From Escherichia phage mEpX2: a DNA stretch of 38,759 bases. Positions 7,168-13,022 of the stretch are shown here, one piece after another. Every line of letters starts with the position of its first letter. Within the stretch, counting starts at the first letter, position 1. The stretch lies in the sequence record NC_019705.1. One strand, 5' to 3'. The notes under the pieces were generated by a model that did no database searches, was not told the origin of the DNA, and saw only the letters and a program-made list of their open reading frames with translations. The position numbers and the translations under genes are program-made.

Positions 7168-7193
7168 CCACCGGCCTTGAGCCGGTTTTTTTA
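7168..7193 (+). terminator. intrinsic terminator-like hairpin
   Basis: ACCGGC-CTTGA-GCCGGT followed by TTTTTTT. Confidence 0.45.
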
Positions 7194-7208: not shown

Positions 7209-7709
7209 ATGTCTGTATTGACGCAAGGTACGCAGCTCTTTGTGCTCGTAAAAGGCAAGGTGAGCGAAGTTGAATGTATCACTGCATTTTCACCCGGCAG
7301 CAATCCGGCTGACCAGATTGAAGACACCTGTCTTTCTGAGCGCTTTGATCGCAGCTATAAGCGTGGTCTTCGAACGCCTGGCACAGCATCACTGACGCTT
7401 AACGCTGATCCTAAAAATACCAGCCACATCATGCTCTACAACCTGTCCATTTCGGACGACGAAAAGGATCAGGACCTGACCTTCGCGATTGGATGGTCAG
7501 ACGGAACCGCATCGCCAACTGCGGCTGAAAATGGTGCATCCGGTGCAGTCGATGGCCTGGTGCTACCTGATAGCCGCACATGGTTCGTATTCAAAGGCTA
7601 TGTGTCCGACTTCCCGTTTGATTTTGCAGCAAACACGGTTGTTTCTACTTCTGCATCTATCCAGCGCTCCGGCTCTGCTGTATGGGTGCCAAAAGTCGTG
7701 ACCCCATAA
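7209..7709 (+). CDS. major tail protein
   Basis: 166-aa ORF preceding the G/GT chaperone pair and tape measure. Confidence 0.8.
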
Positions 7710-7747
7710 AATCAGGGCGGCAACGCCCTTATTAATCAGGATTAATA

Positions 7748-8233
7748 ATGAAATTAACACTTGATGCACTCAAGGAGTCCGGCGCGTTTACCGGTCGCCC
7801 GGTTGAGAAAGAAATCACCTGGACGCAAGGCGATAAAAAAATCACCGCGACCGTGTATGTTCGCCCGATGGGTTATCACACAGCAACGTCCGATGTGCTG
7901 GCTTTTGGTGGTAAGGTCGATGGTGTGGCAGGGCGTATCGCCGCATCCATCTGCGATGAACATGGTAAACCCATCTTCACCCCGGCTGACATTACTGGTG
8001 AGGCAGATCCTGAACGTGGTGCACTGGATGGCGGCCTGACGGTAGCACTGCTTCTGGCCATTCAGGAAGTTAACGATCTGGGAAAGACTTCGAGCTCAGC
8101 GCCGAAGACGAATTCTGGTGCGAGCTCGTCCTCAACGGAATCGGAGGCAGAACAATCGCCGAAGCGCGGGAAGTCCTCTCATTCAAAGAGTCCCAACTCT
8201 GGGCAAAGTACCGGGAACGATACGGGAGTCTGA
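7748..8233 (+). CDS. tail assembly chaperone G
   Basis: 161-aa ORF immediately upstream of tape measure; contains slippery heptamer. Confidence 0.8.
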   Translation: MKLTLDALKESGAFTGRPVEKEITWTQGDKKITATVYVRPMGYHTATSDVLAFGGKVDGVAGRIAASICDEHGKPIFTPADITGEADPERGALDGGLTVALLLAIQEVNDLGKTSSSAPKTNSGASSSSTESEAEQSPKRGKSSHSKSPNSGQSTGNDTGV

Positions 8234-8409
8234 ACCCTATGTTGCGGGTTGAGTGGGGTGCCGGGCTGGTGAGCAGCATGATAGCCAACGTTAACAGAGA
8301 CCCCAAGCGCCCACCATTCAACCCGACCGATTTCACACTTCACTTTACCAAAGTCAAAGCTGCTGATGGACCAATCTCGTTAGAGGAAGCCAGAGCCAGC
8401 TGGACATAA
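7748..8409 (+). CDS. tail assembly chaperone GT (-1 programmed frameshift product)
   Basis: -1 frame is open from slippery site G GGA AAG (8080-8086) to TAA at 8407-8409; translated -1 frame verified free of stops. Confidence 0.6.
8080..8086 (+). other. programmed -1 ribosomal frameshift slippery site GGGAAAG
   Basis: Identical heptamer and codon phasing to the lambda G/GT frameshift site. Confidence 0.6.
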
Positions 8410-8428
8410 TGCCGCCAACGGAGAGTTT

Positions 8429-10849
8429 ATGGCTTCCAAATCACTGGGCACGCTGACGATCGACCTGATTGCCAAAGTGGGCGGTTTTGTCTCAGGCCTC
8501 TCGCAGGCTGAGCGAGCTTCACAAAAATGGCGTAAGCAGGTAAAGGAGGATGCCGCTGCCGCTGCAGCTGCCATGACCGGATTCGCAACAGCAGTCGGGG
8601 CTGCAGCCATCGGAGCCGGAGTGGCGGGGTATAACCTGCTCAAAACCACTTCACGTCAGATTACCGAATCAGACCGCTGGGCAAAGTCACTTAACATGTC
8701 CACGCAGTCCCTGTTAGCCTGGCAATATGCTGCAGAAAAAGCAGGTGTTTCCGGCGATCAGATGGCCGATATCTTTAAAGATGTCGGAGACAAAATCGGT
8801 GATGCCGTTCTTAATAAATCTGGTGAGGCGGTCGGTGCGCTGGACGCTCTGGGTTTGTCGGCTAAGAAACTGGCCGGAGAATCTCCCGACAAGCAACTCC
8901 TGGCTATCAGCGACGCACTGGAGAAAGTTAAGTCCAACGCCGAGAAGACTACCATCCTGGAGAGTCTTGGTAATGACCTGTCAAAGATGCTGCCGCTCCT
9001 GGACAATGGCAGTGAAAAGCTGCGTCAGTATATGGATGCCGCGAAGAAGTTTGGTGTGGCGCCCGATGACGCAGATATTGAAAAGCTGGTCAGAGTCAAC
9101 GCCCTGTTTGAGGATATGGAGACGCAGGTCAACGGCGTCAAAATTGAACTTGCTGCAGGGCTCGCCAGCGTAGATTTGAGTGGGCTCCAGAAGTCTATTG
9201 GAGATATGGGGGATGTATTTAAAGACCCGGCTGTTATTCAGGGTCTGACTGATCTGGTTGGTGGGGTAGTGGACCTTGCCACCTGGCTGGTAAGGGTAGG
9301 AGCCGAGGCCGGAAAGCTGATAGACCAGTACAAAGGTGGGAGTTCGGTCGGCCTGAATGCCTCCATTCCAGAAATTGAACGGCGCATCAAGAACCTGAAT
9401 GCAGATCTCGATGATAAAGGCATACTGGCGAGTTTCAACAGAATAGGTATGGACGTATCCGGTAAGGAGGCCGAAAGGGCTGAGCTCCAGAGGCGACTGG
9501 CCTTTTTGAGAAACTCCCAATCTACTCTACCGGAAATAAAACTGCCCGAGCCAGTCAAAACAAACTATACCCTTGGCGCCGGGGAAACAAACGGTAAGCC
9601 GCAAAAAAATACCTCTGGTCAGAAACTGGATTCAGCGTTTAAAAGCGCTGAGCGCAGTTACATGCGTCAGATTGAGCTGATCGATACCACGGGCAAAAAA
9701 ACTGCTGTGGTGACCGAGCAGCAAAAACTGCAGTTCGATATAGCTGACGGCAAGTTGCAGGGGCTTAACGAAACCCAGAAGAAACGACTTGCGTCTCTGG
9801 CTCAGGAAGTTGATCGCCTTAATGCCGTCAAAAAAGCTAATGAAGAAAACGCGAAGGTAGCGGCGTTCGTGGCAAATCTGCAGGAGCAGAACGAGAATGC
9901 ACGTGCAGATTTGGGCGTGGATATTCAGGGGGCCGGACTCGGTGACAAGCAGCGTGAAAGGCTGAGGGAAAGGCTGAGTATAGAGCGCAGTTATCTCGAT
10001 CAGCAGCGCGATCTGCAAAAGCAGTATCAGTCAGGAGATATCAGCCAGACAGTTTATGACCGCGAAACCCAGGCATTAAAGGATGCGCAAGCTGAGAGGC
10101 TGGGCATCCAGGAGGATTATTACAGTCAAATTGATGCGCTGCAGTCTGACTGGGTGACTGGCGCCAGAGACGGTCTCGCTGACTGGGTAGATGATTCAAC
10201 TAACTATGCGACGCTGGCGGCGGACGCTATGAAAAGCGCGCTTTCCGGTATCAGCAGCAATATCGTCGACATGCTCAACGGCAATAAAGCGAGCTGGAAA
10301 GACTGGGGTGTCAGTGTTCTGAAAATCATCGAACAGGTGATGGTTAACATGATGATCGCCAATGCAGCCAGCTCGATAGGCTCATTGTTCGGTGGTGCCG
10401 CATCGTCTTCCGCCAGCAGCGGTACTGCGATTCAGTCCTACGGGGCGAGCCTGCAATTCAACGCCAAAGGCGGCGTTTACTCTTCTGCCGATCTCAGTCA
10501 GTACAGTAACTCTGTCGTCAGCTCTCCAACACTGTTTGCCTTTGCCAAAGGGGCCGGATTGATGGGGGAGGCTGGGCCGGAGGCTATTATGCCACTGACC
10601 CGCGCCGCTGACGGATCGCTGGGCGTGCGTGCTATGGGAATCTCAGGCTTAACACCGGGTGGTAGTAGTGCTCCTCAGGTCAGTATTCAGATTGATGGCA
10701 ATGGGAATACCCAGACTCAGGCTAGCGGTGGATATGAGCAATTCGGGCGGGAGGTAGGTAGTTTTGTTGATCGGCGATACCGCGAGTTGATAGGCCGTGA
10801 CCTTTCACCCGGTGGCGCGGTCTGGAATCTGGCAAAAGGAGGGCGGTGA
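8429..10849 (+). CDS. tail tape measure protein
   Basis: 806-aa ORF, alanine/glycine-rich and coiled-coil, after G/GT. Confidence 0.9.
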   Translation: MASKSLGTLTIDLIAKVGGFVSGLSQAERASQKWRKQVKEDAAAAAAAMTGFATAVGAAAIGAGVAGYNLLKTTSRQITESDRWAKSLNMSTQSLLAWQYAAEKAGVSGDQMADIFKDVGDKIGDAVLNKSGEAVGALDALGLSAKKLAGESPDKQLLAISDALEKVKSNAEKTTILESLGNDLSKMLPLLDNGSEKLRQYMDAAKKFGVAPDDADIEKLVRVNALFEDMETQVNGVKIELAAGLASVDLSGLQKSIGDMGDVFKDPAVIQGLTDLVGGVVDLATWLVRVGAEAGKLIDQYKGGSSVGLNASIPEIERRIKNLNADLDDKGILASFNRIGMDVSGKEAERAELQRRLAFLRNSQSTLPEIKLPEPVKTNYTLGAGETNGKPQKNTSGQKLDSAFKSAERSYMRQIELIDTTGKKTAVVTEQQKLQFDIADGKLQGLNETQKKRLASLAQEVDRLNAVKKANEENAKVAAFVANLQEQNENARADLGVDIQGAGLGDKQRERLRERLSIERSYLDQQRDLQKQYQSGDISQTVYDRETQALKDAQAERLGIQEDYYSQIDALQSDWVTGARDGLADWVDDSTNYATLAADAMKSALSGISSNIVDMLNGNKASWKDWGVSVLKIIEQVMVNMMIANAASSIGSLFGGAASSSASSGTAIQSYGASLQFNAKGGVYSSADLSQYSNSVVSSPTLFAFAKGAGLMGEAGPEAIMPLTRAADGSLGVRAMGISGLTPGGSSAPQVSIQIDGNGNTQTQASGGYEQFGREVGSFVDRRYRELIGRDLSPGGAVWNLAKGGR

Positions 10850-11940: not shown

Positions 11941-12651
11941 ATGCGTCAGAAAACCATCGATGCCATCATGGCGCATGCCGCTGCGGAATACCCGCGAGAG
12001 TGCTGCGGCGTGGTGGCGCAGAAAAGCCGGGTTGAGCGTTATTTCCCCTGCCGCAACCTTTCTGAAGAGCCGACAGAACATTTTCACCTTTCTCCCGAAG
12101 ACTACGCAGCTGCCGAAGACTGGGGGACGGTGGTAGCCATTGTTCACAGCCACCCTGACGCGACGACGCAGGCCAGCGAGCTTGATAAGGCGCAATGTGA
12201 TGCAACGCTGCTGCCCTGGCATATTGTGAGCTGGCCGGAGGGGGATTTACGCACCATCCAGCCGCGCGGAGAACTGCCACTGCTGGAGCGTCCGTTTGTG
12301 CTTGGACACTTCGACTGCTGGGGGCTGGTAATGAGCTATTTCCGGCAAACGCATGGTATCGAGCTCCACGATTACCGGGTGGATTATCCCTGGTGGGAAA
12401 ACGCCTATCCGGACAATTTTTATCAGGATTGCTGGTATGAATGCGGATTCCGTGAATTCGACGGACCACCGAAACCCGGTGATATGGTGATCATGCAGGT
12501 CCAGGCCGATAAGTGGAATCACGCGGGAATTCTGCTGGAGGGAAATATGCTGCTGCACCACCTGTACGGACATCTGAGCCAGCGCGTGCCGTATGGTGGC
12601 TACTGGCAGGAAAGGACGATGAAGATTCTACGTTACAAATCTCTGTGCTAA
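11941..12651 (+). CDS. tail assembly protein K (MPN/JAB + NlpC/P60-like)
   Basis: 236-aa ORF with HSHP metalloprotease-like motif and conserved Cys/His, lambda gpK-like. Confidence 0.85.
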   Translation: MRQKTIDAIMAHAAAEYPRECCGVVAQKSRVERYFPCRNLSEEPTEHFHLSPEDYAAAEDWGTVVAIVHSHPDATTQASELDKAQCDATLLPWHIVSWPEGDLRTIQPRGELPLLERPFVLGHFDCWGLVMSYFRQTHGIELHDYRVDYPWWENAYPDNFYQDCWYECGFREFDGPPKPGDMVIMQVQADKWNHAGILLEGNMLLHHLYGHLSQRVPYGGYWQERTMKILRYKSLC

Positions 12652-12680
12652 CCTTTTGCAAAACCAAAGGGGATAGGGAT

Positions 12681-13022
12681 ATGAAAAAAACATTATTGAC
12701 ACTTTCTTTGATAATCATGGCTGGTTGTTCGAGTATGCAGGATCTCCGGAAGGAACCAGCGTCAAATACTTTTCAATCGAAGAAACAAATTGACGCAGTA
12801 GCTGAATGCATACTCTCTGGCTGGCAAGAAGAAAGCCAAAAATATGGAAGCGTTTTTATTCAGCCTTATGACGGTGGTAAAACTGTATTTACACAATCTC
12901 AACTTGAGATGGTTGATTTAATATCGGACGGCGGAATTACCAAGATTGAATTCCGTCATCAAGGTGGGCTATTTGCTTATCGAATAAACAGCCGGATTAA
13001 AGTAATAGAACGCTGTATCTAA
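12681..13022 (+). CDS. lipoprotein (moron inserted between tail genes K and I)
   Basis: Signal peptide MKKTLLTLSLIIMAGC with lipobox; AT-rich relative to flanks; own SD; followed by terminator. Confidence 0.6.
   Translation: MKKTLLTLSLIIMAGCSSMQDLRKEPASNTFQSKKQIDAVAECILSGWQEESQKYGSVFIQPYDGGKTVFTQSQLEMVDLISDGGITKIEFRHQGGLFAYRINSRIKVIERCI

Follow-up and report, generated by a model that had tools for sequence, protein, structure and literature searches.

A conserved slippery site very probably joins the tail assembly chaperone reading frames G and T in Escherichia phage mEpX2

Introduction

A pair of tail assembly chaperones, G and GT, that is made at a fixed ratio by −1 frameshifting and serves tail-length assembly was reportedly described by Levin et al. 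1993 and Xu et al. 2004 and is said to have been textbook material since then. At the E. coli dnaX and IS911-type sites, as at the site predicted in mEpX2, two tRNAs slip in tandem on an X_XXY_YYZ heptamer whose last letters are A_AAG, and the dnaX and IS911-type sites need an upstream Shine-Dalgarno-like element together with a downstream stem-loop or pseudoknot.

In the lambda paradigm, G binds the tape measure protein, T attaches to the tail tube protein and sets off polymerisation of the tube, and the chaperones then depart; the ratio of G to GT is ~30:1 (PMC5009743). The heptamers G_GGA_AAG and C_CCA_AAG are both highly shift-prone in E. coli (PMC5009743). The record of phage HK022 carries gp13 and a two-piece joined CDS, gp14, that is annotated as a presumed translational frameshift product, and PMC5313236, citing Xu et al. 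2004, states that the frameshift of HK022, among those of other phages, has been experimentally confirmed. For HK97, RefSeq annotates, alongside gp13, a tail chaperone produced by a −1 frameshift, and the pair is located between the genes for the major tail and tape measure proteins.

Here, we analysed a 38,759-nucleotide stretch of Escherichia phage mEpX2 (NC_019705.1; hereafter the window), for which an initial annotation, made from the letters alone, had proposed a hidden GT fusion at 7748-8409. We find that the G/GT frameshift of mEpX2 is real and ordinary, and that it was previously known and annotated for the identical sequence of HK022.

Results

The window matches the public mEpX2 record PV340544.1 with 100% identity. 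The DNA of mEpX2 from 7748 to 8428 is 100% identical to HK022 7797-8477, and also 100% identical to HK140 and mEp235. The G gene (7748..8233, + strand), which appears in the ORF list as an uninterrupted 0-frame ORF, encodes a 161-aa tail assembly chaperone whose ATG is preceded at a distance of 6 nt by AGGA (7738-7741). The protein has exactly the sequence of AAF30365.1, HK022 gp13. Its residues 6-109 match the full profile (1-98) of Pfam PF16459, Phage_TAC_13, with 117.9 bits (E 2.7e-34; gathering cut-off 28.8 bits), and it matches PHROG 1749, tail assembly chaperone, with E 2e-56. The T segment (8086..8409, + strand) consists of 107 codons and a TAA in the −1 frame and has a conserved N-terminal motif, DEFWCELVLNGIGGRTIAEA. 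The initial annotation had suggested searching the −1 product against gpT families. When this was done, T alone matched PF06223, Phage_tail_T, the family of lambda gpT, with 30.7 bits and the fusion matched it with 35.2 bits, against a gathering cut-off of 25.9 bits and over profile positions 1-68 of 73; T also matched the tail protein groups PHROG 5297 and 337. A lack of gpT similarity, which the initial annotation had named as speaking against its proposal, was thus not observed.

Joined as join(7748..8086, 8086..8409) on the + strand, the two parts give a GT CDS spanning 7748..8409 and a protein of 220 aa, in which G residues 1-113 are followed by 107 T residues. In an exact-sequence look-up this rebuilt fusion matched HK022 gp14 (AAF30366.2; UniProt Q9MCU7), titled 'tail assembly chaperone [Escherichia phage HK022]', residue for residue. 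An NCBIfam search with G, T and GT returned zero matches, and PDB sequence and profile searches with the same three proteins found no credible relative. A single-sequence AlphaFold2 model of GT had a mean pLDDT of 45, too poor for a check of the fold.

The pair is placed between the tail tube and tape measure genes, as lambda-type G/GT pairs are. Directly upstream of G lies the gene for the tail tube (major tail) protein (7209..7709, + strand; PF16460, Phage_TTP_11, E 7.6e-66), whose equivalent is annotated as the major tail subunit in HK022, mEpX2 and HK140. Directly downstream of T lies an 806-aa ORF (8429..10849, + strand) that matches PF09718, Tape_meas_lam_C, with E 2.2e-15 and is the tape measure protein gene, in agreement with the annotations in HK022, mEpX2 and HK140. 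The reading of the locus as a tail-chaperone GT fusion is supported by the PF16459 and PF06223 matches, the tail gene neighbours and the exact match to the HK022 fusion.

Two terminator-like GC hairpins were seen around the tail tube gene. One, at 7170-7186 (+ strand), is followed by a T run and lies just ahead of that gene; its equivalent is annotated in HK140 as a rho-independent terminator. The second, at 7714-7729, falls within the 38 nt that separate the tail tube gene from G. The two hairpins may set the expression of the tube protein relative to that of the chaperones and tape measure.

We compared the locus with the described pairs. HK022 gp13 and gp14 are identical to the mEpX2 pair in everything but the host genome. 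Lambda gpG/gpGT shares with mEpX2 the heptamer G_GGA_AAG, its phase and its place near the end of the chaperone domain, and the gene order is likewise tail tube, G, T, tape measure. Both T proteins belong to PF06223, the lambda protein scoring 54.1 bits on the same model, and a role in tail-length assembly is presumed to be common to the two pairs (PMC5009743). By contrast, the G proteins fall into different Pfam families (PF16459 in mEpX2 and PF06894 in lambda), T is 107 aa long in mEpX2 and 144 aa in lambda, and the 0 frame continues after the heptamer for 48 codons in mEpX2 but for only 5 in lambda. BLASTP of mEpX2 T against lambda T gave 22% local identity with E 0.022; because this pairwise similarity is weak, the homology of the T proteins rests on the profile HMM. 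HK97 differs from mEpX2 in having a moron gene between the chaperone pair and the tape measure gene. When HK97 was scanned, no canonical X_XXY_YYZ heptamer turned up there that was in phase and led into a long −1 ORF, and a comparison of HK97 with the mEpX2 segment found no DNA similarity.

The slippery heptamer GGGAAAG occupies 8080-8086 (+ strand), inside the 0-frame ORF 7748-8233. Because base 8080 is the third base of a Leu codon, CTG (8078-8080), the heptamer is read as G_GGA_AAG and thus has the X_XXY_YYZ phase that is fit for tandem −1 slippage. This predicted −1 shift site is invariant in alignments A1 and A4. The T frame is opened by a −1 frame TAA at 8071..8073 (+ strand), two codons upstream of the heptamer, contains no stop through 8406 and closes with a TAA at 8407-8409, leaving a gap of 19 nt before the tape measure ATG at 8429. 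Counted from the GGG at 8080 the −1 frame holds 109 sense codons, 107 of which are new codons after the shift. The initial annotation had placed the heptamer at these coordinates and in this phase, which is correct, and had described the −1 frame as open to the TAA 19 nt from the tape measure start, with which our frame scan agrees.

To follow the site through the family we fetched twelve relatives (phages of E. coli, Klebsiella, Pseudomonas, Acinetobacter, Halomonas, Vibrio and Synechococcus, and an E. coli prophage), whose T proteins are 34% to 88% identical to that of mEpX2. In all twelve, a slippery heptamer stands in phase at the corresponding codon, where the chaperone domain ends: GGGAAAG in nine, AAAAAAC in two and CCCAAAG in one. 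In each of them the heptamer is followed by a −1 ORF of 99-113 codons that encodes the motif (D)E(F/V)W(C/H)ELV(L/M)xG(I/V)GG. A scan of IMG/VR yielded 591 relatives, and among the best 80 of these the in-phase GGGAAAG was present in 75 and the one-base variant G_GGG_AAG in the other 5. Codon choice at the site is nearly frozen: across 81 unique GT genes, normalised synonymous codon entropy at the L-G-K codons was 0.022, whereas the mean over the gene was 0.73. The T frame of 66 of 85 unique relatives is open for only 3-4 codons ahead of the first T codon.

At the G/T junction, some 20 nt upstream of locus position 901, the variant was read as CTG GGG AAG in contigs L047, L050, L054, L059 and L071, both frames being otherwise intact. 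Because an A-site Lys tRNA would be unable to re-pair on GAA, the G_GGG_AAG phages may slip at the P site only, less efficiently, or elsewhere.

Selection changes frame at the heptamer. The most variable codon position is position 3 of the G frame upstream of it and position 3 of the T frame downstream of it. For a pairwise view we used the E. coli F467 prophage, which is 83% identical to mEpX2, as the reference. In the upstream part of G, 46 of 49 nucleotide differences between the two fall on G-frame third positions. Where the two frames overlap (8087..8233, + strand) and the −1 frame encodes the conserved start of T, 12 of 17 differences fall on position 3 of the T frame; they change 14 of 49 amino acids when read in the G frame but 4 of 49 when read in the T frame. 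Judged by this substitution pattern, purifying selection in 8087-8233 is evident in the T frame only. In the 0 frame the overlap encodes a Ser/Lys-rich, low-complexity tail of 48 residues at the end of G (TSSSAPKTNSGASSSSTESEAEQSPKRGKSSHSKSPNSGQSTGNDTGV). Among the relatives the 0 frame continues after the heptamer for 0 to 48 codons, with clusters at 12, 29 and 48. We considered the tail as a selected protein segment and ruled this out, since its length varies over 0-48 codons and substitutions fall on second codon positions of the G frame. The variable length of the 0-frame continuation indicates that the 48-residue tail is a by-product of T coding, not a conserved segment.

We asked whether T might instead be made separately, as a 56-aa protein started at an internal ATG, with the fusion unneeded. 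The initial annotation had held that T has no ATG of its own in a position that would allow separate expression. This is true of the first 51 T codons, which include the most conserved motif, but not of the whole frame: the ATG at 8239, T residue 52, is the first start codon of the T frame (8074-8238 has none), and a plausible GGAG (8225-8228) lies 10 nt ahead of it. The ORF that it opens (8239..8409, + strand) corresponds to the C-terminal half of T and stands as a separate gene in the public records of mEpX2, mEp235 and HK140. It has been called as a gene on 260 contigs, under the name 'hypothetical protein' or, in some cases, 'phage tail assembly protein T'. The part of T that is best conserved, however, is the 51 codons ahead of this ATG, in which W-x-E-L-V..G-I-G-G is invariant or nearly so. 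Similarity detected by tblastn with T begins at T residue 1-4 in 75 phage records, upstream of the ATG, and the Pfam match begins at T residue 32, also ahead of the Met. The substitutions in 8087-8233, which concentrate on T-frame third positions, precede the ATG as well. None of the 85 unique relatives has an ATG upstream of the conserved T Trp, and a start codon of any kind occurs in that stretch in only 3, so that 82 lack a start before the motif, and independent initiation cannot yield the conserved domain. In the Acinetobacter relative the residues at the position of Met 8239 are G-R, not Met. Separate synthesis of T from ATG 8239 is accordingly very improbable, and the 56-aa ORF is probably an annotation artefact rather than a functional product.

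Could the heptamer and the open −1 frame have met by coincidence, or have arisen from a sequencing error or from an indel that split one gene into a pseudogene? Taken by itself the heptamer is neither rare nor significant, since GGGAAAG occurs 10 times in the window, where 5.1 occurrences are expected, and a −1 run of at least 107 codons follows 6.3% of the in-phase positions of ORFs of at least 100 aa (median run, 12 codons). These counts leave chance some room, but the wider record argues strongly against it: the segment is identical in 8 phage records and recurs in seven E. coli chromosomes at 83-99.8% identity, the two-frame layout and its slippery site are kept down to ~35% T identity, even through changes of heptamer type, and the codon choice at the site is frozen. 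We therefore give coincidence, error or a broken gene next to no credence. In a scan of the window, 8080-8086 was the sole in-phase slippery heptamer of a real gene to enter a long −1 ORF that is neither another gene nor spurious. The in-phase slippery heptamers at 8774, 12540 and 12400 also have long −1 runs, and were rejected because they lie in spurious ORFs or continue into the next gene.

One of these, GGGAAAT at 12540-12546, is in phase in the 236-aa ORF 11941-12651 and is followed by 158 open −1 codons. The −1 frame that follows it is the upstream-open part of ORF 12513-13022, whose lipoprotein-like start (MKKTLLTLSLIIMAGC) falls after the stop of ORF 11941-12651. This heptamer is probably a coincidence, not a second recoding site.

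A shift made by RNA polymerase, through transcriptional slippage at the A run, would yield the same fusion protein and is not directly separated from a ribosomal shift by sequence analysis, but slippage during transcription takes A/T runs at least ~7 long, the homopolymer here is only three A's beside three G's, and what is conserved is the phase-specific X_XXY_YYZ pattern, exchanged in relatives for the tandem-slippage heptamers CCCAAAG and AAAAAAC. As E. coli ribosomes are moreover known to shift on G_GGA_AAG (PMC5009743), a polymerase origin is hardly plausible at all.

Distant blastn matches begin exactly at the heptamer, and we therefore looked for an RNA element at the predicted shift site. 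A candidate RNA hairpin, a possible frameshift stimulator, was found at 8091..8128 (+ strand), 4-5 nt 3' of the heptamer. The 60 nt of mEpX2 that follow the slip site fold with −24.1 kcal/mol and come first among 36 segments of the gene; against synonymous-codon controls that keep the T protein, the fold has a z of −1.7 to −2.6. Lambda, by comparison, has no excess of folding in the 60 nt that follow its site (z +0.9 to +1.05). When 8087-8180 of mEpX2 was folded against dinucleotide shuffles, z was −0.99. Over 61 unique relatives the post-slip mean z was −1.16, as against +0.24 to −0.64 in control windows, and synonymous entropy in the post-slip region was slightly lowered, at 0.64 compared with the gene mean of 0.73.

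Base pairing was then assessed for covariation. For 8 relatives, RNAalifold returned −7 kcal/mol, in which the covariation term was a penalty (+0.86), and pair counting over 61 unique sequences found no excess, with 78.4% of cells paired against 78.2% in shuffles. With synonymous controls, the post-slip folding signal was moderate in mEpX2 and several relatives and absent in many others. As a stimulator the hairpin at 8091-8128, with its weak energetic support and none from covariation, is thus unproven; where the stimulators of dnaX and IS911 are defined, the mEpX2 hairpin is a weak candidate.

The folding signal is stronger than that of mEpX2 in PAJU2, D14C and Vibrio phage P2. In Pseudomonas phage PAJU2 (locus L015, 698-765) and vB_PaeS-D14C (locus L017, 698-765) the heptamer A_AAA_AAC stands directly at the G stop codon. 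A very stable hairpin (~−33 kcal/mol) begins ~5 nt past this heptamer; compared with synonymous controls its z is −3.6 to −4.6, the top rank among 35-37 windows. It is the best candidate for a 3' frameshift stimulator in the family.

Discussion

Positions 7748-8409 of mEpX2, a lambda-like siphovirus, almost certainly encode its G/GT pair of tail assembly chaperones, expressed via a −1 ribosomal frameshift. The anatomy of the locus, the family memberships of its products, the identity to HK022 and the evolutionary conservation of both the heptamer and the −1 frame are shown by our analysis. That the slippage is ribosomal, how often it occurs and which partners the proteins bind are points that we infer or take from the literature.

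In the mechanism that we propose, most ribosomes would read G in the 0 frame and terminate at 8231-8233, giving the 161-aa chaperone. A minority would slip back by one base at G_GGA_AAG, where the Gly and Lys tRNAs on GGA and AAG would re-pair on GGG and AAA, and would then proceed in the −1 frame to 8407-8409 to give the 220-aa GT. On the model of lambda, the G part, present in both proteins, would coat the tape measure protein (8429-10849), and the T part of the rare GT would recruit the tail tube protein (7209-7709) and so allow the tube to polymerise around the tape measure. The G and GT chaperones would, as in lambda, leave the tail after assembly.

The fusion is hidden, as the initial annotation had put it, from automatic ORF calls and in the GenBank record of mEpX2, but not in the literature, since HK022 is annotated. 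The mEpX2 record (PV340544.1) lists G and the 56-aa ORF as separate 'hypothetical proteins' without ribosomal slippage, and the mEp235 and HK140 records (JQ182731.1 and JQ086370.1) also keep G and the 56-aa ORF separate, without slippage. The practical use of our analysis is a correction for mEpX2 and its relatives, in which a G/GT pair takes the place of G and a 56-aa fragment; the truncated annotation has spread over hundreds of contigs. The comparative data also make the locus a clean example of a recoding site that is visible from sequence alone, through a frozen heptamer, a switch of frame in the selection acting on the gene and the swap to other heptamers.

An RNA hairpin ~5 nt after the heptamer might in addition tune the frameshift in the HK022/mEpX2 lineage, and more strongly in phages of the PAJU2/D14C types, although we consider this unlikely on present evidence. 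Such a tuning hairpin would pair variable linker codons with the invariant F-W-C-E-L-V codons. If it does act in this way, the G:GT ratio in this chaperone family would hang on an RNA element that is undescribed for the family.
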